Source: Aquifex aeolicus VF5 (GTDB lineage: Bacteria > Aquificota > Aquificia > Aquificales > Aquificaceae). From it: a stretch of 32,000 bases of DNA. The notes under the pieces were generated by a model. The model was not told where the DNA came from. It searched no databases and was given only the letters and a program-made list of their open reading frames with translations. The stretch spans positions 7,457-39,456 of the forward strand of contig NC_001880.1 in the NCBI RefSeq assembly GCF_000008625.1. The letters are read 5' to 3'. Shown piece by piece: positions 1 through 20,835 of the stretch. The translations under genes were made by a program, and so were the position numbers. How positions within the stretch are numbered: position 1 is the stretch's first letter; every line of letters starts with the position of its first letter.

Positions 1-1
1 A

Positions 2-2674: not shown

Positions 2675-2980
2675 ATGATATAGCCGAGCAATATAAAAAC
2701 CGAGGAGGACGTAAAGGAAGCAATTAAGGAGATTTTCAAAGATAAGAAGGTTAAGGTTTACCTTTTTGGCTCGAGGGCAAGGGGTGAGAACACACCCAGA
2801 AGCGACCTTAATCTGGGCTTTCTGTCGGATGAGGATATAGGTTATGAGCTTTCTCTTTTGAGGGAAATACTTGAGGAGTCAAACCTTCCCTTCTCGGTTG
2901 ATGTTGTTGACTTATCAAAGGCGGGAAGGGAGTTCAGGGAAATGGTTTTAAAGGAGGGTAAACTTTGGATAAGTTTATAA
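2675..2980 (+). pseudogene. MNT-type minimal nucleotidyltransferase (toxin-antitoxin component) with in-frame TAG at codon 3
   Basis: AGGAG at 2664-2668, ATG 2675, ATA, TAG 2681-2683, then an open frame to TAA 2978-2980. Translation contains YLFGSRARGENTPRSDLNLG (GS...RG...SDxD-like motif with the second Asp replaced by Asn). Not in the ORF track because there is no Met after the TAG. Confidence 0.7.
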
Positions 2981-3018
2981 AGCAATTAGAAGACTTTGAG
3001 AAATCCGTAAGGGAGAAC
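2965..3018 (+). pseudogene. Remnant of the HEPN-type partner of the MNT gene, cut after about 17 codons
   Basis: TTG 2965 follows AGGAGGG and overlaps the MNT stop. (M)DKFIKQLEDFEKSVRE resembles the N-terminus of nucleotidyltransferase substrate-binding / HEPN proteins. Similarity stops where the IS-terminus sequence begins at about 3017. Confidence 0.3.
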
Positions 3019-3076
3019 GCCAAGTTAAGGATTAGAGGAGTGTAGTGATCTAACGAGAATAAAAGAAGCAAGATGA
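3017..3076 (+). mobile_element. IS terminus copy 1 (GCCAAGTTAAGGATTAGAGGAG...GAGAATAAAAG)
   Basis: About 60 nt alignable by eye with 12246-12320 and 12594-12672, which contain the 3' end of a DDE transposase gene. Confidence 0.65.
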
Positions 3077-3140
3077 GATTTGTTGCATTTTGGCCAAGTT
3101 GGCAATTTTGCAACGAATTTGCGAGGTTAAAATCATTTTT

Positions 3141-3437
3141 ATGTGGGAGCTTTTGAAGCTTCTTGAGAGCTACTTTTCTTATCTTGATTACTGGGTAGGA
3201 AAGCAGGAAAGTGAAATCGGGAAAGTACTTGTTTTGCTGGTATTTCTTTTTACGCCTGTTGCGGTATGGAGGGTGTTGGGGAAGAAGTACAGGTTTCTTG
3301 AGAGGTACTTGAGGCTTGTAGCTTTTGTAATGTTTATTGCGACGGGGGCTTACGTTTTTCATCGGTATTTTGAGGTAGGTTTGCTTTGGGGACTCGTGCT
3401 TTCGTCTAAAGTTTACGAGTTTTTATGGAGTGACTAG
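3141..3437 (+). CDS. Hypothetical small membrane protein
   Basis: ORF 3090..3437. The internal ATG at 3141 avoids the IS-derived sequence. Hydrophobic segments VLVLLVFLFTPVAVW and LVAFVMFIATGAYVF. Confidence 0.35.
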   Translation: MWELLKLLESYFSYLDYWVGKQESEIGKVLVLLVFLFTPVAVWRVLGKKYRFLERYLRLVAFVMFIATGAYVFHRYFEVGLLWGLVLSSKVYEFLWSD

Positions 3438-3499
3438 AAGTCTATTTTAAATCCCTTGATTTTCGAGGAAAATCTTAATGGAAGTTTACCCCTAAACTT

Positions 3500-3625
3500 G
3501 GAAAGCTTGAAATACAAGCATTTCCCGAAGAAAGAGGTCTCAAAACTTATTACTACCTGAAACCGCAAGTTGTGGACTACCTTGTAGAAAAGCTTTCCAA
3601 TACTATCAACCGCCTGTATATTTAG
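3500..3625 (+). pseudogene. 3' fragment of a third copy of the excisionase-like HTH gene
   Basis: Translation ...AFPEERGLKTYYYLKPQVVDYLVEKLSNTINRLYI* matches the C-terminus of 613..834 (YYFKPEVVDYLLEKLSE). No N-terminal part or start codon. Confidence 0.6.
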
Positions 3626-3954
3626 ATTTGGAGTATAGGGAAATTATATCCTTTCCATGTTTTTCTATATAGAGAAAGGTAGAGGTCTTTACCGGAAAGT
3701 TCAAGGAGTTCCTTTTCAAACTCCGAGATGTGATATATGCCGTGCTTGAGGTGGAGGAGTTCGTGGGCTATGAGATATCCGAGTTCTTCATCGCTCAGCT
3801 TTGGGATAAGTTCCCTGTTGATGTATATGACCCTCTTCGTCAGGGAAACAGGGGCGAGCTTTCTTTTAAATCTTTTGAGTTCTATCTTGACCTCCCTCTC
3901 TATTCCCAACCTTTCCTTGAGTTCTTTGAGTAAGTTCTCAACCCTCTCCTTCAT
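3622..3954 (-). CDS. Small HExxH zinc-metallopeptidase-like protein (SprT/DUF45/ImmA-type)
   Basis: 110 aa with the motif LIAHELLHLKHGIYH (HExxH followed by a further His). Confidence 0.55.
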   Translation of the reverse strand: MKERVENLLKELKERLGIEREVKIELKRFKRKLAPVSLTKRVIYINRELIPKLSDEELGYLIAHELLHLKHGIYHISEFEKELLELSGKDLYLSLYRKTWKGYNFPILQI

Positions 3955-4210
3955 TTCTCAGCTCTTTTACCATAAGAAGAATTACCTCCTCAACTGCGAA
4001 GTTCACAAGCTCAGCAAGTCGGGATGGCTCCATCTCAAGGGTCAGAATAAGCTCTTCTTTGAGTTTTGCCTTCATTTCCTCCGTTATGAGATTCCTCGAA
4101 AGAAGTTCACCGATAACCTTCTTAAGTCCTTCCGTCTCCCTCAAATTACCTCCTTTACTCTTTACGTACATATAAGTTCCTGAGTATAAGCCAACAGGTA
4201 AGAAATTCAT
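3938..4210 (-). CDS. Hypothetical protein, apparently co-transcribed with the HExxH protein
   Basis: 90 aa ORF overlapping the start of 3622..3954 by 17 nt on the same strand. Confidence 0.45.
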   Translation of the reverse strand: MNFLPVGLYSGTYMYVKSKGGNLRETEGLKKVIGELLSRNLITEEMKAKLKEELILTLEMEPSRLAELVNFAVEEVILLMVKELRNEGEG

Positions 4211-4357
4211 TCAAGGAGTTTGGGAAAAATTCGGACAACTGCCCGTGTAGTAACAGTCAGGACAAAATTTGTGAGGGGAAAGAGAGGTTTATATGTGAGA
4301 TCCTAATTGAATATGTGAAAAAATTAAAAAGTAAGAATCTTAGGGGAGGTTAAAGTC

Positions 4358-5404
4358 ATGAGAAGGGAAATACTTTCAAGAACTCTCCTTCTTTCAAGCC
4401 TATTTGTAGCCGGAGGGTTTCTGACTGCCTGCGGAGGCGGCGGTGGAGGAACAGGAGGAGGAGAGCAGGGTAAGATCACAAACGAGCTACAGGCTAAAGC
4501 CGCTTTAGGTAATTCATTAAGTGCAATACGAAGCAGTGCAGGGTTAACCGAAGATACTCAAACAGGAGTAGGAGCTGCATCTGTAGGGAATAAGGGAGGT
4601 TGGCTTAGGGACGCCTTGAAGCTCTACAAGTCCGCTGCTCCTCAAACGGGAACGCTTGCCTCTCAGCAACAGTATACGTGTGATAACGGAGGTACTGCAA
4701 CCATAGATTACTCTTACGATTCAAATACCAGAACCGCCAGTGCAACTATTACTTTTGATAATTGTGGAAACACTTGCAGTCTAAACAAGTATGTCATATT
4801 CAACGGAACTATGCGTTTCTCCGGGAAAGATATCAATCAAAACTATATCTTGGAAAGCGGCAGCATATCTGTAGATTCCGGATTCTCTTATACCGACCAG
4901 TGTGAGAATGAGGGTGTTTACTTCGAGGGCAACTTCTCAATATCTGTGAAGGGGTATATCCCAAATACTGGGGATATTGAAGACGGAAATAATAACTATA
5001 AAGCCGACCTGACACTCGATGGAGGACCCGTTAAGGTTACAGATGGTTCAAAGTGGGAAAGGGGCTCTTTCGATAACTTGACTTTCTATATTAACGAATA
5101 TTATCCCGCAAGCGCTGATTACGAGTGGAAAGTCAACGGGGGTTTCAGGTATCAAGACAGTTACTGCGTAACAGATCCAGTATACCTCAGCTTCAACACA
5201 ACAAACATCTTCAAGGGCTACAACACGGTTGAGTGTGAATACACAGGAAGACTCTCCGTTAATAACGACCTTATAGTTGCAGAATCCTACGATCCCGATA
5301 GTAAGCCTTCCGAAACGGAAAACTACCTTAAAATCCTCTTTAACGGAAATGTGGTATTCGACAACCTCTGTACCAACTTCAATCCTCCGGATACGTGCAG
5401 CTGA
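4358..5404 (+). CDS. Secreted lipoprotein, Gly-rich linker then Asn/Thr/Tyr/Cys-rich domain
   Basis: Signal peptide plus lipobox (LLLSSLFVAGGFLTAC) followed by GGGGGGTGGGE. GGAGG before the ATG. Confidence 0.8.
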   Translation: MRREILSRTLLLSSLFVAGGFLTACGGGGGGTGGGEQGKITNELQAKAALGNSLSAIRSSAGLTEDTQTGVGAASVGNKGGWLRDALKLYKSAAPQTGTLASQQQYTCDNGGTATIDYSYDSNTRTASATITFDNCGNTCSLNKYVIFNGTMRFSGKDINQNYILESGSISVDSGFSYTDQCENEGVYFEGNFSISVKGYIPNTGDIEDGNNNYKADLTLDGGPVKVTDGSKWERGSFDNLTFYINEYYPASADYEWKVNGGFRYQDSYCVTDPVYLSFNTTNIFKGYNTVECEYTGRLSVNNDLIVAESYDPDSKPSETENYLKILFNGNVVFDNLCTNFNPPDTCS

Positions 5405-5494
5405 TAATTGAGAGCCTCAGCCCCTTTTCTAATAAAGAACCTGAGGAACATAAGAACGGAAAGAACTAAAAGAAGCCAAGAAGGAGCGAAGGAG

Positions 5495-6540
5495 TTACAG
5501 CCCCATCTCCGCCAACCTGTATGAAAAAGTAACCCTTCTCAACTTCTGTTCTGAAGTCTTCCCTGAACCTTTAAATCTTGTTTCGAGCACGTAAACAGCC
5601 TTTTCAGAGCAGTAAACTACATTCGGATAAAGGAAGTTATCATCCTCTACTGCATTTGAGCTGAACCACTCTTTGACTTCTTCAGGTATTGCAAAAGAGT
5701 GATCCTGTAAATAAAGGGCTACGAGTCCCATAACAACGGCCGTAGCCATTGATGTTCCTGCAAAGGGAACATAGTAATGACCTTCGGCACAAATGTAGGG
5801 ATCGGAGTGAGATGAGAATTCTGAATTTGTGCTGCAGATAAAATACCCTCCTGCCACAATGTTTGGTTTTATCCTTCCGTTCCTTGTTGGTCCCCTTGAG
5901 GAAAAGTATGCTATCCTTCCTGCGTTGTAAAATGATTGCGTATCAAGTGGTCTGCTTGCAAAGGCTCCTACCGTTATAACCCTCTTGGAAGTTCCCGGAT
6001 TCGTTACTGTAAAGGTTATCCCTCCTGTAGGATCCCTTTCGTAATGGTCGCTGAAGGAACCGCTACCTGAGATTACCCACATTATCAACCCTGAGTTCAT
6101 TGCACCGCAATTTGTTTCCCAGACCCTCTCATATCCGTTCGTATCCTTTCCCGAATCCACTCCTACGCAGTAATCCGATCCAGGAGCACAGACATCAATT
6201 CTGTATTCGGATCCCTGAATGTACCAGCCCTCTACAAGAAGTAACTCCGTAGTTCACGGATATACGAACTCTATCTTCAACTTCAGTATTACTGGCATGG
6301 ATTCTTTTGCTTCTGTTGTTCCCTAGGGCAGCCACTACAACAAACCCAGACCAGAAACGTTATCTATCTCCTTCTCTAGAAGGGAAGTTCCATCGTGAGA
6401 TCCTGCAAGTGTTTCTACAGCGAGATTTGTAACTGAAGGCATTCCGAGAAGCTCTACATTTTCCTTTATCCATCTCAGCCCTATTATTACATCAGAATTC
6501 GTACATTCCGTAAGTTTATAAACTATCAGGGAAGATGTAA
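5495..6540 (-). pseudogene. Subtilisin-like (S8) serine protease, frameshifted and 5'-truncated
   Basis: ORF 5495..6160 carries the catalytic Ser motif GTSMATAVV. Upstream minus-strand frames give SDVIIGLRWIKEN...SHDGTSLLEKEIDNV and GFVVVAALGNN in two other frames with stops. The Asp/His region is absent. Homology ends at the cassette boundary near 6540. Confidence 0.75.
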
Positions 6541-6574
6541 TCTTTGATTTTCAATAAGTTATTAACCTATTTTA

Positions 6575-6775
6575 AAGCTATCATTAACTCTCGGCAGTGG
6601 AAGTATAGGGCTGTTGTTCAAGCTTGATAGCTTCCTAAAAGTCATTTTGCTTATAGTTGGAGTAGCTTTAACCACAGCTTTTGCAGGGCTTACGATAATC
6701 TTTTACCGAAAAGCTATTGACCTTCTTGAAGAGCTTGAGAAATTAGAAAAGAATAATGAGGCGAAAAATGTATGA
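6575..6775 (+). pseudogene. 5'-truncated paralog of the 89 aa membrane protein 12840..13109 (cassette A)
   Basis: Translation LTLGSGSIGLLFKLDSFLKVILLIVGVALTTAFAGLTIIFYRKAIDLLEELEKLEKNNEAKNV* aligns with the C-terminal two thirds of 12840..13109. No start codon. Confidence 0.55.
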
Positions 6776-6884
6776 TGTAATTGCTTACTTTGGAGCTATT
6801 GCTATTGGGATTATCTTACTGACTATGGCAATTGTGATGCTCAAACTCGCCTTAGAAGAAGGTAAAAAGCCAAAAGCTAAGTAA
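6768..6884 (+). CDS. 38 aa single-TM peptide (MYDVIAYFGAI family)
   Basis: ATG overlaps the upstream stop (ATGTATGA). Paralogs at 15856..15972, 12739..12843 and 7227..7343. Hydrophobic core followed by a Lys-rich tail. Confidence 0.55.
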   Translation: MYDVIAYFGAIAIGIILLTMAIVMLKLALEEGKKPKAK

Positions 6885-6903
6885 AAGAAGGAGAGGAAGT
6901 CTT

Positions 6904-7107
6904 TTGAGACTAAAAAGGGAGACTCTTAAAGAAACAGGAAAGCTTTTCTATGACCTCAGTAAAATTTCCGCAGGTTTGGGGTTGTTGCTTCCTTTCCTTA
7001 AAGGAGAGAACGTAAGCATATTTTCCGCTTTAATTGCACTTTTTTCTTCTCTTGTGTTTTTCGTAATAGGGCTAATTTTAATCAATAAAGGAGCTGAAAA
7101 TGACTGA
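6904..7107 (+). CDS. 67 aa two-TM membrane protein (MRLKRETLKE family)
   Basis: TTG start after GGAGAGGAAG. Paralog 15628..15831 has the same TTG start and the same N-terminus. Confidence 0.6.
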   Translation: MRLKRETLKETGKLFYDLSKISAGLGLLLPFLKGENVSIFSALIALFSSLVFFVIGLILINKGAEND

Positions 7108-7207
7108 CCTAATACTCTACTACCTTATACTTGTCGGAGGGCTGGCTTTAGCAGGATTGGTAGTTTACTTCCTTGCAAACAAGCAGGAAGCTAAAAAGCA
7201 GGGATAA
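7100..7207 (+). CDS. 35 aa single-TM peptide ending NKQEAKKQG
   Basis: ATG overlaps the previous stop by 8 nt, exactly as in the paralog 15528..15635 (ending NKQETEKQG). Confidence 0.5.
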   Translation: MTDLILYYLILVGGLALAGLVVYFLANKQEAKKQG

Positions 7208-7226
7208 GTACCGAAAGATATATGAT

Positions 7227-7343
7227 GTGATAGTCTACTTCGGGGCTATAACTTTAGCGGTCATATTTCTCGTTATGGGCATAGTAATGACAAAATTGAT
7301 GATAGAGGAAAGGAAGAAAAGACAAAAACCCGAAACCAAGTAA
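7227..7343 (+). CDS. Extra copy of the MYDVIAYFGAI-type peptide, with only a GTG start available
   Basis: Frame gives (K)IYDVIVYFGAITLAVIFLVMGIVMTKLMIEERKKRQKPETK*. No in-frame ATG, so it may be degraded. Confidence 0.3.
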   Translation: MIVYFGAITLAVIFLVMGIVMTKLMIEERKKRQKPETK

Positions 7344-7346
7344 GCC

Positions 7347-7692
7347 TTACCTTCTCCAGAACTCCCACCACCTCTTTTGAGGCTTGGCTTCCAGCTTCTT
7401 TATCCTCTCCTGGAGCTCCCTGATGAGTTCGTCTTTCTCCTTTAGCCGTCCTTCAAGTTCCCCTAGTTTGTAGATGGCTTTCTGGAGTTGTTCCTGGGTC
7501 TTTTGATACTCGGAAAATGGAACGATTGCCCCGCTTACAGTTTTTCTCTCTTCGCCTTTGAGTTGTAGATACAGCATTTGTATGGTTCGGCTTACCGCTT
7601 CGGTCTTCAGAAATCCCAAGTGTTCTTGCTATCTCCTGAAGTTCTTGGGTTATCTCTCCCGAAAGTCTAAAGGTCTTTTTAACTCGCTCCAT
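7347..7692 (-). pseudogene. Ribbon-helix-helix (CopG-like) protein with coiled-coil tail, split by a 1-nt frameshift
   Basis: 7453..7692 starts MERVKKTFRLSGEITQELQEIARTLG (RHH beta-strand plus helix). The sequence continues sensibly only in the frame of 7347..7619 (LKTEAVSRTIQMLYL... then a heptad-rich tail). The switch lies near 7612-7625. Confidence 0.6.
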
Positions 7693-7854
7693 AAATCCAT
7701 CTTTAAGGGCGTATGGCTTTTGTATGACTTTTGTCGGGCCTTAAAGCCATACAGGAGGAGCTTGAAATTTCATAGCCATACATAGACGCTTGACTATTAA
7801 GTCCAGGGTTGCATTACGGAAAAGTCAGGTTAAATTATAAATCCGCTACTGTAT

Positions 7855-8055
7855 GAGGGAAGGAACGGGATATCCCAACGAAGGGGAGGTTCCCCGATGA
7901 TGTGGGATGGAAAGTCCCGTTCCTGAAATGAGGTTGGAGTGTTAAGTAACCTGTCCCATCTCCTACATGGAGGTGGGAAAGCCCGCCCTGTGGTGCGGGT
8001 TGGGGTTTCGCTGAAAGGTCCCTCACGTGAGGGACACAATCTAAGCGGAGCCCCT
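7855..8055 (+). ncRNA. Candidate structured ncRNA of unknown class
   Basis: Locally GC-rich island in AT-rich DNA. Nested perfect stems at 7861-7870/7915-7924, 7872-7877/7903-7908 and 7883-7887/7891-7895. A 9-bp stem 7945-7953/7959-7967 has one T-G pair. An 11-bp stem 8002-8012/8044-8054 has two T-G pairs and encloses 8018-8024/8029-8035. The T-G pairs are wobble pairs only if the plus strand is transcribed. Confidence 0.5.
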
Positions 8056-8502: not shown

Positions 8503-8644
8503 GAATCATGCGAAATCCGCTTCCCGTAACCAGTTCAAAATCGTCCCAGTTTTTAGCTCCTCTCTCTAAAACGTCTACATACATCGTATATGCGTTTAGC
8601 ACTTTTCTTAAGTTCTTCGTTTGGGTTTCTGCTGTAAGGCTCAT
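8438..8644 (-). CDS. Hypothetical protein, possibly the 5' half of a frameshifted gene together with 8164..8502
   Basis: 68 aa ORF. The long out-of-frame overlap with the next ORF is unusual. Confidence 0.4.
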
Positions 8645-8853
8645 ACCGAGTTCCTCCCTGTAGAACTTTTATTTATCCTTAAACCGGTCCTTTAGGGCTA
8701 AAAAACAGGCTTTTTATATGGCTTTTGTAAGGCCTTTTAGCCGTATAAAATGACAAGCGCGGACGGACGGGATTAACAAGAAGACATTCAATTTTCAAAA
8801 ACTGAAACTGCTGAAATTGCTTGGTTTTGGCTCGCTTCTTTCAGTTCCCTCGC

Positions 8854-8943
8854 TTAGTATACTAACTAAGATTAGTAAGCTTTGTAATAAAAGCTATAAT
8901 TATTAGCTAAATAATATAAGTTAGATGAGTAAAGATAGAAATT
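8854..8943 (+). repeat. About 90-bp conserved non-coding element, inverted copy of 24470-24560 (centromere/operator-like)
   Basis: By-eye alignment to the reverse complement of 24470-24560 shows about 9 mismatches and 1 indel. Both contain ACTAACTAAG, TTTGTAATAAAAG, ATAAGTTAGAT and AAAGATAGAAA. Confidence 0.75.
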
Positions 8944-9018
8944 GGTTTAGAAAACATGCCTTTTACGGAAGTACTGAAAGCTCTTAAAAATATTTACGAG
9001 TAGTTTAAATACACTCTT

Positions 9019-9975
9019 TTACTCCCTCTTAAATTTGTTGTTTCTTTTCAGGATAAATTTAAACCTTTTGCTTATGGACACGCGTGAAACTTTGGAACCT
9101 TTATGATGCCACTCTATTATTCCCATTTCTTCCAGTTTATTTAAATGAGCGTAGAAAGTTCTCTTCTTAAGACCTGAGAGATTCAGCAACTCGTCCGTCT
9201 TCATTCCGTACTCTCTGTCCTTCAAATGTTTAAGGATTGGTTCAAACTTGTGTAAAATTTCTTCATACTTTGCTTTCTCATTAATATACCAAGTAATTGC
9301 TCCATTTTTGTTTATGTAATAGTATATTTTTTCAAAAGGATAAGCAAAATTATGCTTTTCTATTGTCAATACCCGAAAGCTTTTCCCTTCTGTGTAGGCC
9401 TGCATAAAGGGAGTTGTTAAAAACTTAATTGTAGATACGCCCTGATACCTGTCCGTTTTATTTTTTCCTGAACTTTTAATCGTGTGATGAATAAACATTA
9501 TGTGACTTTCAGAATTTCTTGCTAACTTTCTTGTTTTTTTAATAAATTCCTTAACTTCTACAGGATCATAAATAGACTTTCCTTCATAAAAGGCAACAAA
9601 ACTATCAACCACAACAAAATCGTAGCGTTTTTGTTCCAGTATCTTTTCAAAACTCCTGTAATCCGAAATGTCGTCCAGATCCATTATTTCCATTTCTGAA
9701 GTGCTTATTCTGTATCTTTTTCTTATTGGTTCTAACTTTTCTAAGATATCTTCCTTATAAAGTTCCAGAGATATATAGGCTACTTTCTTCGGTTCCTTAA
9801 CTTTGAGTAAATTGTGAAATAAGTTCTTACCTGCACCTGCCAGTAGACACAAGTAAAGGCTTATGGTAGTTTTCCCTACACCTGAATCACCGTAAAGTAT
9901 GGAAACGTATCCCTTCCTGAAAAACTCGTCAAAATTTTGCGCACTGTTGCTCCTTTTGTATTCACTTAACCTCAT
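9019..9975 (-). CDS. RecA-superfamily (RepA/KaiC/AAA_25-like) ATPase with C-terminal winged HTH; candidate plasmid replicative helicase or loader
   Basis: Walker [10 protein letters not shown] and Walker [10 protein letters not shown]-terminal [21 protein letters not shown] looks like a wHTH. Confidence 0.65.
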
Positions 9976-10155
9976 ACTATTTTCATTTTAATTTAAAAGT
10001 TATGCATTACTATGCAATTTATCTTTTATAAGCCTAGTTAATCAATGATTGCATAAGCTTTCTTAAATAAATAAAAAATAAAAGAAAGACAGGAAAAAAG
10101 AACTAATTAAGTGAAGGAGCTTACGCTCCTTAAAAAAATTAAAGGAGGTAAAGAA

Positions 10156-10752
10156 ATGAATGAATACTATGAAAGAATGGAAGAGCTATTTAAGCGTGAA
10201 TTTGCAAAAGAATACCTTGAATTAGCAGAGCAGTATTATGGTATTGAAGAATCCTATTATGAAGAAGAACAGAAATTAGATGAAGAAGAAAGAGAAATTA
10301 CAGATTGGACCGGGCAAATAGATGAAGTTTACAGCAATATAACAATAGACGAAGATTGGCTTTTTGAAAAACTCATTAAAAGAATAGAACTTGGAGGCAA
10401 AGTTTATACACTTTTTGTAGAACCGTATAACTCTTTACTACACAGAAAACCGATCGTAGTCGTACTTAAACCTTTAAAGGGAAGTAAAAAACTTGAAGAA
10501 ATAGTGGCAAAAGCTTATTACAGCAGGTTTTACTGGATGGAAGATCCTTTTTATAGAGATATACTCCTTTCAAGAGCGTATGAAGCGGAAAACACGATTA
10601 AAGAAGACCCGGAGAAATTTGAAGAATTCGTAAAAATGGCGGAAGTATTGAAAGAACATGAAGACAGGTTTCTGAATATAGAAAACATAGGAATAAAGTT
10701 TGTAGAAAAAAATTTAAGTGAGTTTACTCTTGGATTTGATTTAGAAGAATAA
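10156..10752 (+). CDS. Hypothetical acidic protein
   Basis: ORF 10111..10752. The ATG at 10156 follows AAAGGAGGT with good spacing, whereas GTG 10111 lies inside a leader hairpin. Confidence 0.6.
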   Translation: MNEYYERMEELFKREFAKEYLELAEQYYGIEESYYEEEQKLDEEEREITDWTGQIDEVYSNITIDEDWLFEKLIKRIELGGKVYTLFVEPYNSLLHRKPIVVVLKPLKGSKKLEEIVAKAYYSRFYWMEDPFYRDILLSRAYEAENTIKEDPEKFEEFVKMAEVLKEHEDRFLNIENIGIKFVEKNLSEFTLGFDLEE

Positions 10753-12738: not shown

Positions 12739-12843
12739 TTACTTTTCCCCAGTAGCTATTTTCACACTTTTATAAACAAAGTAAATAAATGCACTTGCGA
12801 TTATAATTGCCCCTAAAACTGCCAAAATGTCGTAAATGTTCAT
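12739..12843 (-). CDS. 34 aa single-TM peptide (MNIYDILAVLGAI), cassette C
   Basis: ATGA start/stop overlap with 12840..13109. Same family as 6768..6884 and 15856..15972. Below the ORF-track size cut-off. Confidence 0.5.
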   Translation of the reverse strand: MNIYDILAVLGAIIIASAFIYFVYKSVKIATGEK

Positions 12844-13109
12844 TTATCTGCCTCCTTATTATTTAATTTAGACAAAAGTTCAATGTAGTCTTCTATTTTG
12901 ATTAGCAATCGCAAGGTTAGACTAATAAGAATTATTTCCGTAAAAGCACCCACGAATAATAGAAAAACCTTTATTTTATTATCAAGGTTTAAAAGCAGGC
13001 TTATTGTCCCACCACCTATAGCTATAATAGTAATCCAGAATAGTTTAAGAAGCTCAGTTAAAAACTTTATCTTTTCCTTTACGTATTCTTCCTTGTTCAC
13101 ATTTATCAT
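12840..13109 (-). CDS. 89 aa two-TM membrane protein, the full-length member of the family truncated at 6575 and 16190
   Basis: IAIGGGTISLLLNLDNKIKVFLLFVGAF...LLIKIEDYIELLSKLNNKEADK aligns with both truncated copies. Confidence 0.6.
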   Translation of the reverse strand: MINVNKEEYVKEKIKFLTELLKLFWITIIAIGGGTISLLLNLDNKIKVFLLFVGAFTEIILISLTLRLLIKIEDYIELLSKLNNKEADK

Positions 13110-13233
13110 TTTATCATTCTCCTAAAGACTGAGAATTCCCAAACTTCATCACCAAAGAAGTTTGATATTTGAAAATCAATAGATTGGTAAATATACCTTT
13201 ATAAACATATTGAAAATCAAAGGCTTAAAGCAA

Positions 13234-13648
13234 TCATTCTATAGTTAAGGCATTTGTACACTTCTTTACTCCCTTATCAAAGGACACAACTTTGTATTTC
13301 TTAGAATACGCACAAAGAAGGCAATCTACAAAGTCTAAGTTCTTATTAGAGTATATCTTTAGAGCCTCTATAAGGAGCTCATTATCTTCAATTTTCACAT
13401 TCCTAAGTTCCAGTATGTCTATAAGTACCTGTGATATAGTAGGTCTATCAACTTTATATACTTTCTTGAAGAACATAAACAATTTCGGCTATCACTACCT
13501 GTGGGATAAAAACTTTTAGTTCTCCGGAGAGTATCTTATTAAATAACTCCTCAGCCTCTTTATACAGCTTCCTGTGGTCTTTAAGTAGATATCGCAGGAT
13601 TACATTAGCATTAACAATTATCTCTTTTTCCCCTTTCCGCGAGGCCAT
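13234..13648 (-). pseudogene. vapC: PIN-domain VapC toxin split by a frameshift (copy A)
   Basis: ORFs 13454..13648 and 13234..13482 together form one PIN domain (IIVNANVILRYLL / VIAEIVYVL / KVYKVDRPTISQVL / LDFVDCLL / VVSFDK). The frame changes in the AAGAAAG stretch. The first catalytic Asp position reads Asn. Confidence 0.75.
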
Positions 13649-13859
13649 CGCCTATTGCCTCTTTTTCAGTTTTCATTATCTCTTCTATGGACCTGTCACG
13701 GGTAGCGTATTTGTGTAGAATTCCTCCCAATTTCTTAACAGGTTTAATTATTACTTTTCCCTTCTCATAGGTTATCTCAACTATATCAGTTCCTAATAAT
13801 TTCCTGTACTCAGCAGGTATGGTAATTTGTCCTTTCTTAGTAAGCTTAGCTATTTTCAT
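13611..13859 (-). CDS. vapB: AbrB/SpoVT-type antitoxin (copy A)
   Basis: MKIAKLTKKGQITIPAEYRKLLG is a typical swapped-hairpin AbrB/MazE N-terminus. Lies upstream of, and overlaps, the PIN gene. Confidence 0.8.
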   Translation of the reverse strand: MKIAKLTKKGQITIPAEYRKLLGTDIVEITYEKGKVIIKPVKKLGGILHKYATRDRSIEEIMKTEKEAIGDGLAERGKRDNC

Positions 13860-13960
13860 TCTTACCTACCTCAATAGGTACTACTTATTGTATAAAGTAT
13901 TACTTACATTATATAGTGTTACTTTTCACAAAAATGATTACATAGTATAGGTAGTTGTGA

Positions 13961-14110
13961 TTAGCTATGCTGTTTGTTAGAGACTGCCAAGATAAGGGTG
14001 TAAGAAAATAGGTATATGGGTGTGCCTGCATACGCGTTTATCTTCATCCTTTCTTCATTCTTAAAGGCTTTTATGATTTCTTTCTGTTCTTCCGTTAGTT
14101 TTATACCCAT
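13961..14110 (-). pseudogene. N-terminal fragment of a UvrD/AAA_19-type helicase
   Basis: MGIKLTEEQKEIIKAFKNEERMKINAYAGT then unrelated sequence. The Walker A motif (AGTGKT) is broken after AGT. Confidence 0.5.
13980..14013 (+). mobile_element. IS terminus copy 5 (short)
   Basis: GAGACTGCCAAGATAAGGGTGTAAGAAAATAGGT, compared with copy 4 GAGACCGCCAAGTTAAGGGAAATAGGT. Confidence 0.5.
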
Positions 14111-14127
14111 TAGTTTTAATATAATTT

Positions 14128-14153
14128 GAGACCGCCAAGTTAAGGGAAATAGG
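14128..14153 (+). mobile_element. IS terminus copy 4 (short)
   Basis: GAGACCGCCAAGTTAAGGGAAATAGG, followed directly by TTGAAAATCAA. Confidence 0.55.
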
Positions 14154-14256
14154 TTGAAAATCAAGGGAACTGTTAATAACAGAACTTTACTGGAGTTTTA
14201 GAATCTCTTGAATATGCTTTGGCAATTATTTTATATGACATAAACTGTAAACTTCT

Positions 14257-14877
14257 CTAGTTTTCTAGGTACTCTTTTACTTTTCTTTTAAAGAATTCTT
14301 CAACTTCCTCCCAGTAAGGTTCTATATCTTCATAAACTTCTTCCCTTGCATCTTCGAAATATACGAGACTTTTTACAATAATTGAAAAGTCAATATTCCT
14401 GTACTTTTTTTTAACCAATTTTTCAAGCTCTTTTAAATCCCATCCGTGTTTTCTCATCAAAAACCACAGGTCGTAAAAATCCTTCTTTGACCCCCTTTGA
14501 GCTATTGCTACTGCCTTCATACAGGCAATATCCTTGTCCCCCGCTATGAAAATCCCAAGATCATTATTTTTTTCAGGGTTCTCTAACAGCGGGTATCGGT
14601 ATTCAAAAAAAGAGAATTTAATTCCATCAAGCAAGAATATTAGAGTATCTTTACTCTGATAAAGCCACCTTACTCTGCTTAGTTTATCAATTTGCCTTGA
14701 TATAGAGAAACTGTCAAAGGGTTTTTCAGGAAAAGTAAAAAAGTCAAAATCATCTGAAAATCTGTGCCCATATCTTATAAGCAAAGCGGTTCCTCCTGCA
14801 AGATAAAAATCGTTACAGATCCCTAAAGAAACTACTTTTTCTAAAGCCTCTCTCTGTTCTTTCTTTAACTTCCTCAT
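14257..14877 (-). CDS. AbiEii/AbiGii-like nucleotidyltransferase (DUF1814-type toxin)
   Basis: N-terminal FYLAGGTALLIRYGHRFSDDFDFF matches the family signature (GGTAL...R.S.D.DF). Confidence 0.6.
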   Translation of the reverse strand: MRKLKKEQREALEKVVSLGICNDFYLAGGTALLIRYGHRFSDDFDFFTFPEKPFDSFSISRQIDKLSRVRWLYQSKDTLIFLLDGIKFSFFEYRYPLLENPEKNNDLGIFIAGDKDIACMKAVAIAQRGSKKDFYDLWFLMRKHGWDLKELEKLVKKKYRNIDFSIIVKSLVYFEDAREEVYEDIEPYWEEVEEFFKRKVKEYLEN

Positions 14878-15061
14878 CGCTTATATTTAAAGCTAACTTC
14901 CAGAAAGCTCTATTTTTAGCGTCAAACCTATGCAGGTTTTTCAAAAATGCCTCTCTCAGTTTTTTCCTAGGATATTTTTTGAGAACTTCTTTTACGTTTC
15001 CGTAAAGCATTTCTCTTATCAAAAGTTCCCTTTCACTTTTTACCTTGTCCCAGTTAAACAT
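14813..15061 (-). CDS. Small upstream partner ORF of the AbiEii-like gene (candidate antitoxin)
   Basis: 82 aa on the same strand, overlapping the NTase start by 65 nt. No recognisable motif. Confidence 0.4.
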   Translation of the reverse strand: MFNWDKVKSERELLIREMLYGNVKEVLKKYPRKKLREAFLKNLHRFDAKNRAFWKLALNISDEEVKERTERGFRKSSFFRDL

Positions 15062-15223
15062 TTCTATCTAAAACAATTTTAAAATTTTCTAAAGCTTTCT
15101 TAGGTGTGGAGCCTACACTAAAAATCGGAGCTCCCACTACCTCAGCTCCCCAATTACTCTCTTTGTCCTTACGTAGAATTACAAGAAATTTATATTCGTA
15201 ACATATCATATATATTCAATATT

Positions 15224-15448
15224 ATGAAAAGAACGACCATTTTTATAAACGAAGAAACCAAACAAAAAATCAAACTAATAGCCAAGAAAAAGCAAAAAAG
15301 CATGGCAGAAATTATAAGAGAAGCTATAAATGAGTACATTGTAAAACACAAAAAGAATAAGAAGTATTCCTTTATAGGACTTGGTAAAAGCAAAAGATCT
15401 GATATCTCGGAAATTCATGAGGAAAAACTTTGGAAATACTCACAGTAG
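15224..15448 (+). CDS. Ribbon-helix-helix (CopG/VapB-type) antitoxin, with no toxin gene downstream
   Basis: MKRTTIFINEETKQKIKLIAKKKQKSMAEIIREAINEYI is a canonical RHH pattern. Only about 80 bp of non-coding DNA follows. Confidence 0.65.
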   Translation: MKRTTIFINEETKQKIKLIAKKKQKSMAEIIREAINEYIVKHKKNKKYSFIGLGKSKRSDISEIHEEKLWKYSQ

Positions 15449-15527
15449 ATAGGAGAGGTTTTTTGGGAATTAAAATTGGAAGAAGAAATCTGATGCTTTT
15501 ACCATAACAACTCAATTTCTTCGTTAT

Positions 15528-15635
15528 TTATCCTTGCTTTTCAGTTTCCTGCTTATTAACAAGCCAAACTATTACGAGACCAACTGTCAATATCCCAAGA
15601 CCTATAAGAATAAAACCTACGGTGTAGCTATCCAT
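15528..15635 (-). CDS. 35 aa single-TM peptide (cassette B), paralog of 7100..7207
   Basis: MDSYTVGFILIGLGILTVGLVIVWLVNKQETEKQG, with an 8-nt overlap with the upstream gene as in cassette A. Confidence 0.5.
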   Translation of the reverse strand: MDSYTVGFILIGLGILTVGLVIVWLVNKQETEKQG

Positions 15636-15831
15636 CTTCACTTCCCTTATTAACAAAGTAAACTCCCAGCAAAAAGAAGGCGAGCCAAAATCCAAAAACA
15701 AGCAATAAGTAAAATAAGTTCGCCTTATGCTTTTGAAATAATGGAGCAACCAAGCCAACTGAAAGGAAAACTGTGGCAACTGTGAGAAAGCGCTTTCCTA
15801 TTTCCTTAAGTGTTTCCCTTTTCAACCTCAA
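15628..15831 (-). CDS. 67 aa two-TM membrane protein (cassette B), paralog of 6904..7107
   Basis: Same length, same TTG start and the same MRLKRETLKE N-terminus. Confidence 0.6.
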   Translation of the reverse strand: MRLKRETLKEIGKRFLTVATVFLSVGLVAPLFQKHKANLFYLLLVFGFWLAFFLLGVYFVNKGSEDG

Positions 15832-15855
15832 AAGATTTCCTCTCCTTCTTTTACT

Positions 15856-15972
15856 TCACTTAGCTTTTGGCTTTTTACCCTCTTCCAAAGTCATCTTAAG
15901 CATCATAACCACTATAAAGAGAAGAATTCCCCATAGGGCGACAGCTCCCAAGAAGGCAATCACATCATACAT
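15856..15972 (-). CDS. 38 aa single-TM peptide (cassette B), paralog of 6768..6884
   Basis: MYDVIAFLGAVALWGILLFIVVMMLKMTLEEGKKPKAK, with AAGGAGG before the ATG. Confidence 0.55.
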   Translation of the reverse strand: MYDVIAFLGAVALWGILLFIVVMMLKMTLEEGKKPKAK

Positions 15973-16000
15973 TTTTCTCCTCCTTGCTCTTTTCTAATCT

Positions 16001-16190
16001 CTAAAGTTCCTCAAGAAGATCAAGTATTTTCCTGTAAGTAACAATCGTAAAAAGGACAAATCCGAGTGTTAGCGATGAGCCCGCAAAAAGCAAGAAAACC
16101 TTTAGCAAGCTATCAAGCTTTAACAACAGCCCTATATTTCCACCGCCGAAAGTTAATGATAGCTTTAAAATTGGTGAAGGAATTCCAAAC
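16001..16190 (-). pseudogene. 5'-truncated paralog of 12840..13109 (cassette B)
   Basis: The reverse complement aligns at DNA level with 6575-6740. It is truncated at the same point (ATTTTAAAGCTATCATTAAC). Confidence 0.55.
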
Positions 16191-16194
16191 TTAC

Positions 16195-16753
16195 GACATA
16201 CAAATTCAAGTTTATATTTCTTTTTGTATCTCCTTCTGAAAGGAATTGTAGTAAATCTATGTGGAAAGTTCTATCCTTTAAAAACTTCATTGGAATGTCT
16301 ATGTCGTGAAGTATAGATCTTATTTTCATTATGTATCCATCAAATTTATATCCGTTGTAGCTAACAATTCTATCAGCTTTTATTATTTCTTCCCAGAATT
16401 TTTGTATGAGGATTTTTCCTTTTCTTCAAGCTCTTCATAAATAAAGTCGGAACTTATCGGTTCAAAGAAAACTTCTACAGTCTTATTCTTACCACATGGG
16501 ATTAGTTTTTTTGTCGTTCTGGTTTGTTTGATCGGAAAGATATACTACTTTTCCTTCTTTTATTATCACTATCTTCTATAAGTACCGTTGAGAAAGATAC
16601 TAAAATAAGCGTGAAGGGATTAAAAGAAAATTCTCGTTCAATATCTTCCTGTGTTTTTTCCCTTTTGCCCCGCTTCTGAATGTATAAATAGTCATCGTAA
16701 GTAATATTCCTTTTATCAGGAACTGTTTCTATATCAAAAACTATAACTTTCAC
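16195..16753 (-). pseudogene. PolB-exonuclease-like 3'-5' exonuclease (COG3298-type), multiply frameshifted and 3'-truncated
   Basis: 16502..16753 starts MKVIVFDIETVP (ExoI DxE motif). Further pieces IVIIKEGKVVYL, ILIQKFWEEIIKADRIVSYNGYKFDGYIMKIRS and FHIDLLQFL lie in other frames. Confidence 0.65.
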
Positions 16754-16790
16754 CTTCTTCCTCCTTCTTTTATTATATTTTTAACCAGTT

Positions 16791-17339
16791 TCAGCGTTTA
16801 CTTATTCTTATAACGGAAAACAGAGAGGTGAAAATATTTCTCTTTTCACTTACCCCTATAGTTTTTAAAAACTCCTCTTTTAGAATGAGATAACTGTCCT
16901 GTAAAAATCCATTATCAAATTCTTCAAGCGGTGTGAGATAACCCGCATCTTTTATCTGGACTTTATAACAAGGGACAAGTTTCTTTTGATCCTGTTTGTG
17001 ATAATAACGGACCTCTTCAAATTTTTCGGGAGAGGTAAGGTAGAGTTTCTTCCATCCTTTGAGCATAGCCCTTTCAAAGTTCCCGTAATAATTTTCGGGA
17101 ACGGGAATTCCCTCGTTAAGTAGAAAGTCTCTTGAAAAGTAAAGAGGATCTTCTTCTTTTAACTCAATCTTTTCAGGATTAACACATTTTAAAAACTTCA
17201 GAAAGAGAGAATTGTTTGCTTTTCCTAAAAGTTTATTTACGCTCTTTTTTGAAGAAATCTGAACCTCAAAAGGCAAGAAACACGCTCTCCTGAAAATCTG
17301 CCTTTCTCCCGTAAGATCAAAAAGATTACTGGTTAACAT
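16791..17339 (-). CDS. Hypothetical protein, last intact gene of the nuclease/ATPase island
   Basis: ORF 16791..17372. The ATG at 17339 follows AGAGGAG and leaves a 14-nt overlap with the ATPase gene. Confidence 0.5.
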   Translation of the reverse strand: MLTSNLFDLTGERQIFRRACFLPFEVQISSKKSVNKLLGKANNSLFLKFLKCVNPEKIELKEEDPLYFSRDFLLNEGIPVPENYYGNFERAMLKGWKKLYLTSPEKFEEVRYYHKQDQKKLVPCYKVQIKDAGYLTPLEEFDNGFLQDSYLILKEEFLKTIGVSEKRNIFTSLFSVIRISKR

Positions 17340-18105
17340 AGCTCCTCTTTTTACTCCCGAGTCTCCACTCAATTCCTTTAGCTTTTAGCTTTGAACCAAG
17401 TGCTCTTTTATCCCTGAGATGTTCTGGTGGAACTTCGTCAATAAGAACAGGCATTCTGTTATCTATGTAAAGAATTGCCTCAAAAGTATTTGCCTTGCTG
17501 TTTCTGGTTTCCTTTAATTTTCCGTAGTAAATTTTTTCTGTCCCCAGAAGTTTTGCTATGAAATTAAGAAGCGTAGTTTTTCCGGCCTTAGGAGTACCTA
17601 TTAAAAGGGAAAATACGGGAAATTTATTTATATCCTTCATTAACTCAGTTGCTTTTTCCCTGACTTCCTTGAGAAATACAGAATAAAAAGAAAATATAAT
17701 AGCCTCTCCGGTTAAAAATCTGTGTTCCTCACTCGTTTCTGTGGAAAGTTCTATATAATCCTTTATCGCAATTACAGTTTTCTTTACAGATTCCTCGGGA
17801 ATAGAAATCTCAACAACGGATTTTCCATTATAAAAAATTTCTCCATCGCAAACCGCTACGTTTACTTTTTCATCTTTATCTTCCCTTTTATTCTTCAAGA
17901 TTTCCTGAATCTTTTGAGGAGATATTAGTATTTCCTTCTTCTTTTCCGCAAGCTTCTGAAACATTTCTGCGCTTTCTTCAACCGCTTTTTTTCTGACAAG
18001 AGACTTCTGAGCTTCGTTAAAAATGGGACTGTTAATCACTTTAGTATAGTAGTAATTGAGAACAACATTTTTTACTTTTTCGTTTTTCTCAAATTCCTTT
18101 ATCAC
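17326..18105 (-). CDS. P-loop NTPase (possibly SF3-helicase-like)
   Basis: Walker A LLIGTPKAGKTTLLNFI and Walker B-like MPVLIDEV. GTG start; the frame stays open upstream to 18333. Confidence 0.6.
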   Translation of the reverse strand: MIKEFEKNEKVKNVVLNYYYTKVINSPIFNEAQKSLVRKKAVEESAEMFQKLAEKKKEILISPQKIQEILKNKREDKDEKVNVAVCDGEIFYNGKSVVEISIPEESVKKTVIAIKDYIELSTETSEEHRFLTGEAIIFSFYSVFLKEVREKATELMKDINKFPVFSLLIGTPKAGKTTLLNFIAKLLGTEKIYYGKLKETRNSKANTFEAILYIDNRMPVLIDEVPPEHLRDKRALGSKLKAKGIEWRLGSKKRSYVNQ

Positions 18106-18284
18106 TTCCCTTACTACTTCCGGTTCCTGAGTTTCTATAAACAGATTTAAGTGTTTTTCAATTTTCTTACTATTTTCAGATGCCTTTTTTCTTAAATCGG
18201 TGGAGCTTATTATTTTCCTTGCCCTACTTTTTACATAATTGTAATACCTTTCACATTCTTCAATTACGTTATCCTTTTCAATTA

Positions 18285-18740
18285 TTACAAAAAAAACTCT
18301 TCCTGAGGTCCCCTCCAGGCTAAAGAGGATAAATTACCACTCCCTGCTACGACAATTTTCCTTTCTTCGGATTCAAGTATGTATAACTTTGTATGACAGT
18401 TTGGAATGTAGTAAACGGAGAAATCTTTAAACATGGCTTGTTTACTTATTTCTTCTCCTTCTTTGAGGAACTTTTCCACTATAACTTCCAGGTTATAAAG
18501 TTCCCTTCCTTGTTCTTCTAACCCTATCAGGATTTCCACTTCCCTGTAATCCTTTAAAAGATCAAGGATACTCTTCAGAGAGGAGAAAGTTATAGCTTTT
18601 ATCCTGTTGAATTGCCTAAGGTATTTCCCTGGAATATCGTACAGGAGTTTAATTTCCTCTTCGCCTATACTAAGAATAGGCTTTTTAGTATCTTTTTCAG
18701 GTTCCTCTGAAAAAAGTTGTTTGTTCATTATACCTCCCAA
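18285..18740 (-). CDS. PLD-superfamily (HKD motif) nuclease domain protein
   Basis: C-terminal CHTKLYILESEERKIVVAGSGNLS matches HxK(x)4[D/E](x)6GSxN, with Glu at the Asp position. Confidence 0.6.
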   Translation of the reverse strand: MGGIMNKQLFSEEPEKDTKKPILSIGEEEIKLLYDIPGKYLRQFNRIKAITFSSLKSILDLLKDYREVEILIGLEEQGRELYNLEVIVEKFLKEGEEISKQAMFKDFSVYYIPNCHTKLYILESEERKIVVAGSGNLSSLAWRGPQEEFFL

Positions 18741-18878
18741 ACTACTTAAAATTTCGCATCAGATAGTGCCTATTTCAAGCTAAGTCCTATCTTTTACTAA
18801 ACTTACTTTTCTAACTTATATAAGTTATATTACTTATAAAACTAAACTTTATTTAAAGAATAAAATTCATTAGCACCC

Positions 18879-19649
18879 TTATACGACTTCTACCAGTAAA
18901 GGAAAAGGTACGCCGGTTCCGCTCACAATACCTTTACCGGTAGGTAGTTTCGGAAGAATGTTCGCTATATCACTTCCAGCAAATTCTACAAAAGTGGAAA
19001 CTGTATCAATGTCAGATGCATTTATAGTTCTAAACATAACCTGAGTGTTTAATTGAGAAAGGATATATTTGCTAACCTGTGCTGGTCTTTGCGTTATTAC
19101 CATAAGTCCTAAATTGAATTTCCTTCCCTCGGATGCTATCTTTCTGGCAAAAGTGAGAGAAAGGTTTTCTTTTCCTGCGGAGACATCCCCGAATCCCTTT
19201 TCTGGAGCAAAATTGTGCGCCTCTTCCAGAACTAAAAATCTTTTGGAAGGTTGTTTCTTATTCCTTGTAAAAAGCTCTTCCATTATCAGTCCTGCTATGT
19301 TTATTCTCGTTTGTGGATGCGTAATATTCCGGAAGTTAAAAATAATTACTCTCTTTTCACTTTCTAGTCCAGAATTTATTGCATCAAATACAGTTGTTTG
19401 GTTAGATAAACTATTTTCACCGTAAGTTTCTTTAAGGTAAGTGGTTATTTCTTGTATTTCCTTAGAACCCGCATTTAAACTTTCTATCAAATTAACAAGT
19501 GTTTTCTTAGATAAAGAAGTAAGTCTAAGAGAGGGTTTTATGTTCTGTGAAAGTTTTGATCTATTTTCCCTGGCCTGGTGTGAATTACCGCTTACCAGTG
19601 AAGGGTATCCTGCTTCTTTTATAAGTTCTTCCACTTCCTCTGGAAACAC
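18879..19649 (-). CDS. herA: HerA/FtsK-superfamily ATPase, C-terminal half (Walker B, arginine finger region)
   Basis: FLVLEEAHNFAP...EGRKFNLGLMVITQRPAQVSKYILSQLNTQVMFR is a typical HerA/DUF87 C-terminal core. In frame with 19686..20498 across one TAG. Confidence 0.75.
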   Translation of the reverse strand: MFPEEVEELIKEAGYPSLVSGNSHQARENRSKLSQNIKPSLRLTSLSKKTLVNLIESLNAGSKEIQEITTYLKETYGENSLSNQTTVFDAINSGLESEKRVIIFNFRNITHPQTRINIAGLIMEELFTRNKKQPSKRFLVLEEAHNFAPEKGFGDVSAGKENLSLTFARKIASEGRKFNLGLMVITQRPAQVSKYILSQLNTQVMFRTINASDIDTVSTFVEFAGSDIANILPKLPTGKGIVSGTGVPFPLLVEVV

Positions 19650-19685
19650 AGGGAAAATTGTATCTTCAAGTTCGATATGTTCTAT

Positions 19686-20498
19686 CTAGTTTTCATCTAT
19701 ATAACTCTTTAAATCGTTGAAGTATTCTCCGTGAGGATCAAGTACATAAACTTCAACTTCTTTATCGGATTCAAGTAAACTGGAAATAAACCTTTTTGTA
19801 AAATAGCTTTTTCCTGAACCGGTAGTACCTAGTACGAGCATGTGTTTACTTATCACCTCGTTTGCATCTACAAACACATCTATGTCAGAATTCTCAATCA
19901 CGCCAACTTTTACAGGAACTTCCATATCTCTCCCGGAAAAATTCTTCTTGAGTATTTTCCCCAGTGTTTTTTCTGATATTTTATAAACAGGTTCTCCTAC
20001 ATGGAAGGGATTTCTTAATATATCTAATTTTCCATCCTTTAGTATACCTATTACGTCCGCGGTTGCTATTTTCAGTTTATTTCCATTATTGTTGAGGTAA
20101 GCGTAAATAGCCGCCTTTTTCCATTCGTCATCTTTTCCTTTAGAAAAAATGGTTTTAAAGTCCTCTACGGGAGCAAAAACACTGGATTCCTGTGAAGTGA
20201 AGGGATTCGCAAAAAATCCCATATCGTAAGCAAAAATACTTGTTATCTTTCCGAGCACAATACCTTCCTGTAATTTCACTTCAACGTAAGAATGTAAACC
20301 TATATCATCATTGCCTACCAGAATAAACTCAAAGGATTGAGGTTTTACAGGATTTACAGTAAATCCTAAAAGATCATCTCCAAAACTTTCGGAATACTCT
20401 TCCTTAATTTTTTCAAAGTATTCACGTAGTTTTTTAATATGTTCATCACTGCCGTCCGATTCGTAATAAACTCCCGCTTCTATATTGCCCGTTGACAT
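19686..20498 (-). CDS. herA: HerA/FtsK-superfamily ATPase, N-terminal half (HAS-barrel region plus Walker A)
   Basis: HMLVLGTTGSGKSYFTKRFI...VYVLDPHGEY. Ends at TAG 19686-19688, which is in frame with the downstream half. Confidence 0.75.
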   Translation of the reverse strand: MSTGNIEAGVYYESDGSDEHIKKLREYFEKIKEEYSESFGDDLLGFTVNPVKPQSFEFILVGNDDIGLHSYVEVKLQEGIVLGKITSIFAYDMGFFANPFTSQESSVFAPVEDFKTIFSKGKDDEWKKAAIYAYLNNNGNKLKIATADVIGILKDGKLDILRNPFHVGEPVYKISEKTLGKILKKNFSGRDMEVPVKVGVIENSDIDVFVDANEVISKHMLVLGTTGSGKSYFTKRFISSLLESDKEVEVYVLDPHGEYFNDLKSYIDEN

Positions 20499-20499
20499 A

Positions 20500-20835
20500 T
20501 CAGATAATCCTGCATCCGGTAAAGTTCGCCGAACCTACGACTGCCCTTTTATTATCAACGATTATGAATTTTGCATGTAGCCTGTTACACAGGTAAATTT
20601 TTCCATTTATATCTTTAATATTTCTAAATACTCTGTCATTAGTTATGAGAAAATCCCTAAGTTCTGATGCTCTCAATATTATTTCAGGAGAAATATTTTT
20701 ACTCTTTGCTATATTCAGGATTTCTTCAAATATACTCCCTTTTATCCATGCGGATGCGATTTTTATGCTTTCCTTAGCTTCTTTTGTTATTTCTAAGATT
20801 TTCTTATATATTTCCTAGCTCGTCAGGATTTCCAT
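20500..20835 (-). pseudogene. Small Nuc-like PLD-family nuclease with in-frame TAG at codon 7
   Basis: GGAGGG, then ATG at 20835, MEILTS, TAG 20815-20817, then EIYKKILEITKEAKESIKIASAWI...NRLHAKFIIVDNKRAVVGSANFTGCRII. This is a perfect HxK(x)4D(x)6GSxN motif. The stop lies 1 nt before the herA ATG. Absent from the ORF track. Confidence 0.7.

Follow-up and report, generated by a model that had tools for sequence, protein, structure and literature searches.

Three in-frame amber codons in Aquifex aeolicus VF5 fall within two pseudogenes, one of them a predicted PLD-HerA fusion

We analysed a 32,000-nucleotide stretch of Aquifex aeolicus VF5 DNA (assembly GCF_000008625.1, contig NC_001880.1, positions 7,457 to 39,456 of the forward strand), hereafter the window, in whose own numbering all coordinates are given; the replicon is one that we take to be plasmid ece1 of this strain. 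An earlier note, made from the letters of this DNA, described three otherwise intact open reading frames (ORFs), a minimal nucleotidyltransferase (MNT) gene, a Nuc-like PLD gene and herA, each interrupted by exactly one in-frame TAG and by no frameshift. The three TAG codons are there, but they belong to two genes only. Judged by comparison with homologs, what was described as a Nuc-like PLD gene and as herA is a single PLD-HerA gene in two parts, which carries a TAG, a +1 insertion and a second TAG, and the window copy is unable to make the fusion protein. Very probably the three ambers are inactivating mutations of the ordinary kind, in two genes that are dead and on a plasmid that is losing genes to decay; that they share one stop type, TAG, is then coincidental and involves no recoding.

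The PLD-HerA gene and its three lesions

The HerA part of the window, used as a query, finds hundreds of homologs, the best of which are proteins of 645-670 aa with PLDc_2, HAS-barrel and DUF87/HerA domains on one polypeptide. The closest is 66% identical to the window copy, and every full-length homolog that was compared is a single polypeptide (113/113). When three of these proteins are searched against the window with tblastn, the matches form two colinear segments, in frame -3 and then in frame -1. The first covers residues 1 to ~106 (frame -3, 20835 to ~20520) and the second runs from residue ~107 to the end (frame -1, 20516 to 18885). The change of frame falls within a conserved junction, GSANFT|DAGLSD, the right half of which is common to the 15 closest homologs among the matches listed, barring the conservative variants EAGLSD and DSGLSD. 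Codon alignment resolves the change to one extra G, with ACC GGA TGC AGG in the window and ACT GAT GCC GGA in the orthologs, such that the window has GG at 20516-20517 where the orthologs have a single G. The shifted frame that follows the insertion stops at a TGA at 20500-20502.

With this one base removed the gene is colinear with the 113 homologs and occupies 18879-20835 on the minus strand, with an ATG at 20835, a TAA at 18879-18881 and ~651 codons; Pfam domains match both of its pieces. The signature motifs of both halves can be read in the window sequence, including LHAKFIIVD...GSANFT (HxK...GSxN), a Walker A motif GTTGSGKS and a Walker B motif LVLEEAH. The repaired gene places a PLD HxK(x)4D...GSxN motif, a HAS-barrel and a HerA P-loop domain on one polypeptide, as in the family. 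The uninterrupted ORF that is also a feature of the family is lost in the window through the two TAGs and the frameshift.

The first TAG of the fusion is its codon 7 (20815-20817, minus strand), close behind an ATG at 20835 that is preceded by GGAGGG. The corresponding column in the 113 homologs is dominated by acidic and amide residues (D 83, N 12, E 9, Q 2), and the three orthologs read as DNA have GAC, GAC and AAC. The second TAG (19686-19688, minus strand) is codon 271 if counted from an internal ATG at 20498 and is approximately codon 381 of the fusion. Homologs vary at this site (D 24, L 20, N 11, E 10, A 8 and further residues among the 113), and Aquifex pyrophilus has AAA there. A mechanical scan of the window singles out this stop alone as having a long open frame before and after it (282 + 268 codons), once stops whose long flanking frames are antisense frames or adjacent genes are set aside.

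The lesions were compared with independent Logan short-read assemblies of other runs (L003, SRR29904085; L002, ERR15087784). L003 is 100% identical to window positions 1-7996, L001 is 100% identical to 8571-13182, and L002 is 99.987% identical to 13668-29617, with 2 single nucleotide polymorphisms (SNPs) in 15,950 bases, no gaps, and no SNP at a lesion. The disabling lesions of both PLD-HerA and MNT are reproduced in these data, and the TAGs that the earlier note had placed at codon 3 of MNT, codon 7 of the PLD gene and codon 271 of herA are all present and all recur. One of the two L002 SNPs, a G>A at 19316, is a Pro-to-Ser change in the HerA pseudogene, in a column where homologs have P 87, A 13 and S 12; the other, a T>C at 25529, is a Gln-to-Arg change in the PIN gene at 25177-25614.

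The nucleotidyltransferase gene and its truncated partner

The third TAG lies at the other end of the region, in a plus-strand MNT pseudogene resembling the MntA antitoxin (2675-2980). The ATG at 2675 has an upstream AAGGAG Shine-Dalgarno sequence and is followed by ATA and then by TAG at 2681-2683, which is codon 3. Beyond the amber the frame continues for 98 codons to a TAA at 2978-2980, and it contains no in-frame ATG, GTG or TTG until 2858. The product matches the Pfam families Polbeta/NTP_transf_2. Homologs have K, N or R in the TAG column, the codon being AAA at locus L008 and AAT at locus L006. A public 85-aa version of the protein (P0122, window 2720-2980) starts with MKEIFKDKK, the gene caller having apparently taken an ATT downstream of the TAG as the start, and is an annotation rescue of a pseudogene.

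MNT carries a second lesion. Of 29 aligned MNT sequences, at least 90% have Asp at position 46, in the context SDLDLG, where the window has SDLNLG with AAT at 2810-2812. The catalytic motif GSx(n)DxD is broken by this D46N substitution, and the Asp-to-Asn change that had been reported for the MNT active site is borne out.

In relatives an overlapping gene of 139-142 aa, belonging to the HI0074 family (HEPN-type), lies directly 3' of MNT. Searches of the window with the L006 and L008 partner proteins by tblastn match residues 1-16 only, 15 of the 16 being identical to L006. What is left of this nucleotidyltransferase substrate-binding subunit is a plus-strand remnant of 16 codons at 2965-3012, in place of an adjacent, overlapping partner gene. 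Exactly at the end of the homology starts a 59-nt repeat (3013-3071; family D1) with 90% identity to 12243-12301 and 78% to 12593-12651, the former copy lying inside a transposase-fragment ORF at 12227-12592. This insertion sequence (IS) end at the break in homology marks an IS-mediated truncation of the HEPN partner. Since the partner is destroyed, MNT would have been free to decay. A TAG TGA that follows the remnant was considered as a nonsense mutation and discarded, as it is part of the IS-end repeat. The IS terminal sequence is present in three copies, and a full-length DDE transposase (321 aa) is encoded at 29616-30581.

In HepT/MntA pairs the MNT protein is the antitoxin-like, protective partner and not the toxin. 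A close homolog of the window MNT scores 58.5 bits against the NCBIfam MntA_antitoxin model, just below its cut-off of 60, and for the partner the scores are 76 bits with TIGR01987 (HI0074) and 29 bits with the HepT toxin model. By analogy the MNT encoded here would be a protective partner rather than a toxic enzyme, and the proposal that all three amber-bearing genes encode potentially toxic enzymes does not hold. The relatives resemble the HepT/MntA (HEPN-MNT) type VII toxin-antitoxin (TA) systems and HI0073/HI0074 in having a small Polbeta/NTP_transf_2 MNT gene followed by an overlapping HI0074/HEPN gene. The window differs in its TAG at codon 3, its D46N substitution and a partner cut to 16 codons, and the scores against the MntA and HepT models set the pair apart as well.

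Ordinary decay and its alternatives

The two amber-bearing genes lie among other broken genes. Adjoining PLD-HerA on the minus strand is a gene with a profile match to the Pfam family Aq_aa27, here called PLD-Aq_aa27 (16839-18740), which is disabled by two frameshifts, one in a T8 run at 18289-18296 and one near 17374-17384. With the Aquifex pyrophilus protein as query, tblastn returns three high-scoring segments in frames -1, -3 and -1; in that species the gene is an intact 650-aa ORF (locus L004, 9962-11914) with PLDc_2 and Aq_aa27 domains and a P-loop. A PIN/VapC toxin gene at 13234-13648 (minus strand) is split by a frameshift, such that the first ORF covers positions 1-46 of the PIN model and the second covers 56-115, and the fused pieces cover 1-115 at 55.7 bits. 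A second copy with the same split is present at 30907-31321 (plus strand), within a 733-nt inverted repeat. The earlier note had also reported an Asp-to-Asn change in the VapC active site; the position of the first PIN Asp does appear to be Asn, as read from a weak alignment to a PDB entry (E = 0.32).

Further remnants in the window include 36 aa of UvrD, an S8 protease whose VVVAALGNN motif is off-frame from its 221-aa ORF, and the transposase fragment at 12227-12592. The in-frame stops of the S8 protease remnant were considered as additional nonsense mutations and rejected, as they come after shifts of frame and none is a clean point stop. In all, the verified lesions comprise three nonsense codons, set against several truncations and four or more independent frameshifts. 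The D46N substitution and the nearby frameshifts and truncations support the mutational decay that had been offered as one explanation of the ambers, but its description as transition-type fails for the TAGs, none of the ortholog codons (GAC, AAC, AAA, AAT) being one transition away from TAG and each of them requiring a transversion or two changes.

The sequence of events that we infer would begin with an IS element removing all but 16 codons of the HEPN partner, after which MNT would have lost its catalytic Asp and gained a stop at codon 3; PLD-HerA would have acquired two nonsense codons and a 1-nt insertion. Loss of these genes would have been neutral or favoured, with defence and TA genes being dispensable or costly.

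The state of the PLD-HerA coding sequence weighs against simple neutral decay. The repaired gene deviates at none of the 100 columns that are at least 95% conserved and at 3 of the 193 that are at least 80% conserved, and its conserved-column score is better than that of the median intact homolog. An excess of missense changes at conserved sites, a hallmark of pseudogenes, is seen in MNT (D46N) and is absent from PLD-HerA. The gene offers 260 possible nonsense changes and 666 missense changes in the 95% columns, and the probability under neutral drift of two nonsense changes arising before any missense change in such a column is ~0.08. Disabling lesions are thus mildly over-represented, at a value that is not significant. 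So pristine a sequence fits a recent or a selected inactivation, and continued purifying selection would look alike. As there is no excess of missense changes at conserved columns, the inactivation is probably recent, and selection against a costly nuclease-translocase may have favoured its loss.

A refinement of pseudogenisation would go further and make the inactivation adaptive, with a harmful PLD-HerA, and earlier the HEPN partner, disabled under positive selection. The three disabling lesions beside unchanged conserved columns, with the neutral expectation of ~0.08, lend this some appeal, as do the two hits in the adjoining PLD-Aq_aa27 and the frameshift in the PIN toxin gene, the first Asp of which is apparently replaced as well. 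Against this, each knock-out after the first should be neutral, such that multiple lesions alone do not show selection; the figure of 0.08 falls short of significance; and UvrD and the S8 protease, which are not toxic, have decayed too. We regard an adaptive knock-out as possible, if rather unlikely.

Conditional amber suppression or read-through, in which inefficient or regulated decoding of the TAGs would keep toxic enzymes silent until they are needed, had been put forward as the other explanation of the pattern. All of the premature stops are TAG, two of them occur very early (codons 3 and 7), and PLD-HerA retains every conserved residue and motif. In PLD-HerA the two TAGs are separated by the 1-nt insertion, and amber suppression alone therefore cannot restore the protein: the TGA at 20500-20502 ends the frame even if both TAGs are suppressed. 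As the gene is also frameshifted, its conserved residues do not rescue the suppression idea. Read-through of MNT would yield a product with D46N and without a partner, so that neither gene gains a full-length functional frame, and MNT is antitoxin-like rather than toxic. We reject a programmed +1 frameshift at ATC TGA T as a rescue of PLD-HerA, since it would swap the conserved DAGLS for GCRII and the P-site codon would be unable to re-pair.

None of the 113 PLD-HerA or 28 MNT homologs is interrupted, and the stop is not conserved at any orthologous position. The ortholog residues differ between the sites, which implies that the three would not all receive the same amino acid. The comparison of ortholog codons that the earlier note had proposed thus finds unrelated sense codons at the three sites, with decay elsewhere, which on these two points is the outcome it had linked to plain pseudogenisation. 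ARAGORN predicts no tRNA or tmRNA gene in the window, L002 and L003, which together represent ~36.4 kb of the 39.5-kb replicon. The three TAGs have different contexts (ATA TAG CCG, AGC TAG GAA and AAC TAG ATA), the 100 nt downstream of each show no excess of RNA structure over shuffled sequences (z-scores of -0.67, -0.27 and +0.14), and no Rfam family is matched above threshold; a shared recoding context or downstream element is thus absent from the three sites. TAG closes ordinary genes at 521-523 and at 15446-15448, as had been noted previously, the first of these ends agreeing with the length of the Aquifex pyrophilus homolog. The terminal stops of 16 long ORFs comprise 9 TAA, 5 TGA and 2 TAG. 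A literature search returned nothing relevant on Aquifex aeolicus ece1 or on a suppressor tRNA, its one shared match concerning prfB frameshifting and using ECE only in names of vectors.

The identity of the stops was assessed with a chance model of single-nucleotide nonsense changes applied to each gene's own codon content. TAG makes up 0.53 of such changes in MNT, which is rich in AAG and GAG, and 0.21-0.26 in PLD-HerA, giving a probability of 0.023-0.035 that all three are TAG; this is nominally low and speaks against chance. The probability that all three are the same stop of any type is ~0.12, and it is this value that applies fairly to a pattern spotted post hoc.

Genuine TAG recoding, as with pyrrolysine in methylamine methyltransferases or in amber-reassigned phages, is accompanied by a dedicated tRNA with a CUA anticodon and by conservation of the TAG across orthologs. 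The window resembles these systems in having in-frame TAGs in genes with clear homologs, and differs from them in the sense codons of the orthologs, the lack of a tRNA gene in the ~36.4 kb searched, the use of TAG as a normal stop and the frameshift beside the TAGs. Conditional suppression is accordingly very improbable, and recoding of any kind retains only a sliver of likelihood. Much the same is true of a combined scenario in which PLD-HerA would be a locked yet recoverable toxic gene, with rare read-through of both ambers plus a shift of frame, or a host suppressor, yielding a trace of active enzyme, and with the MNT amber under the same control; we consider it far-fetched. An origin of the lesions in faulty sequencing or assembly of the source record is refuted, since each of them recurs in independent short-read assemblies that differ from the window by two unrelated SNPs only, and the lesions are therefore not sequencing errors.

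The surrounding replicon and the PLD-HerA family

The inverted repeat that holds the two split PIN/VapC genes (I1; 13136-13868 and 30687-31419) is 733 nt long and 97% identical between its arms. Each arm contains an AbrB/MazE-type antitoxin gene together with the PIN/VapC gene carrying the same frameshift, and between the arms lies a segment of 16.8 kb, to which the PLD-HerA region belongs. This segment might be invertible through recombination between the arms. A second pair of inverted repeats, at 6562-6943 and 15792-16178, is more diverged (73-88% identity) and spans small membrane-protein genes, among them DUF6722-like ORFs beginning MRLKRETLKE... at 6904-7107 and 15628-15831.

Three direct repeats of ~44 nt are present at 29061-29193 (GAAGTAAGGTT...AAGAGGGAAGT), between a 231-aa ORF at 27782-28477 and the IS transposase gene at 29616-30581, and have the appearance of iterons belonging to a plasmid replication origin. 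Upstream of a 318-aa ORF at 22553-23509, which is paralogous to the ORF at 1329-2285, there are two copies of a palindrome, TTCTCCTATATATAGGAGAAC (22136-22179 and 22389-22432), that may serve as an operator or as an element of an origin.

The closest parallel to this part of the replicon is a plasmid-like contig of Aquifex pyrophilus (L004, GCA_054656935.1), in which a PLD-HerA gene lies beside PLD-Aq_aa27, together with ParA, PIN pairs and an integrase. It also contains a homolog of the paralogous 318-aa ORFs at 1329-2285 and 22553-23509 of the window. The two 650-aa genes are intact and convergent there and in tandem in the window, and protein identity is ~40-59%. A megablast comparison of window positions 16000-22000 with PLSDB yielded no match. 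Paired PLD-NTPase genes on related plasmids may constitute a functional unit.

Fusions of ~650 aa with the PLD-HerA arrangement are found in Aquificota, Desulfurobacteriaceae, Hippea, Thermotogae, Thermococcus and Pyrococcus (homologs P0001-P0120; loci L004, L010 and L011). The search returned 619 proteins at E <= 0.001, part of which are not fusions, and the members carry no annotation beyond 'DUF87' or 'helicase HerA domain-containing'. One of them is solitary among housekeeping genes, and the module therefore appears self-contained. The intact gene probably encodes a hexameric DNA-translocating ATPase of the HerA type that has a Nuc/PLD nuclease at its N terminus, and the fusions look like a sizeable, uncharacterised and unnamed family of self-contained nuclease-translocase modules.

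The solved structures closest in sequence are anti-phage HerA assemblies and the Sulfolobus HerA structure 4d2i. The repaired gene is like the known HerA-nuclease modules, namely archaeal HerA-NurA, the anti-phage SIR2-HerA and DUF4297-HerA systems and the HerA/FtsK 'capture' systems described in PMC12839542, in joining a HAS-barrel and a HerA/DUF87 ATPase to a nuclease-type domain. It is unlike HerA-NurA, SIR2-HerA and DUF4297-HerA in that its nuclease is of the PLD/Nuc type and is fused to the ATPase, where theirs is a separate protein. PLD-HerA reaches 112 bits against the NCBIfam equivalog models of HerA-nuclease systems, for which the cut-off is 800; it further differs from such modules in having a homolog that stands alone, and the window copy is a pseudogene.

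The amber pattern is plain pseudogenisation of defence and TA genes, and what had looked like regulated suppression of toxic genes by amber codons disappears when the gene models are compared with their homologs. It is the PLD-HerA fusion family, rather than the TAG codons, that merits experimental attention.

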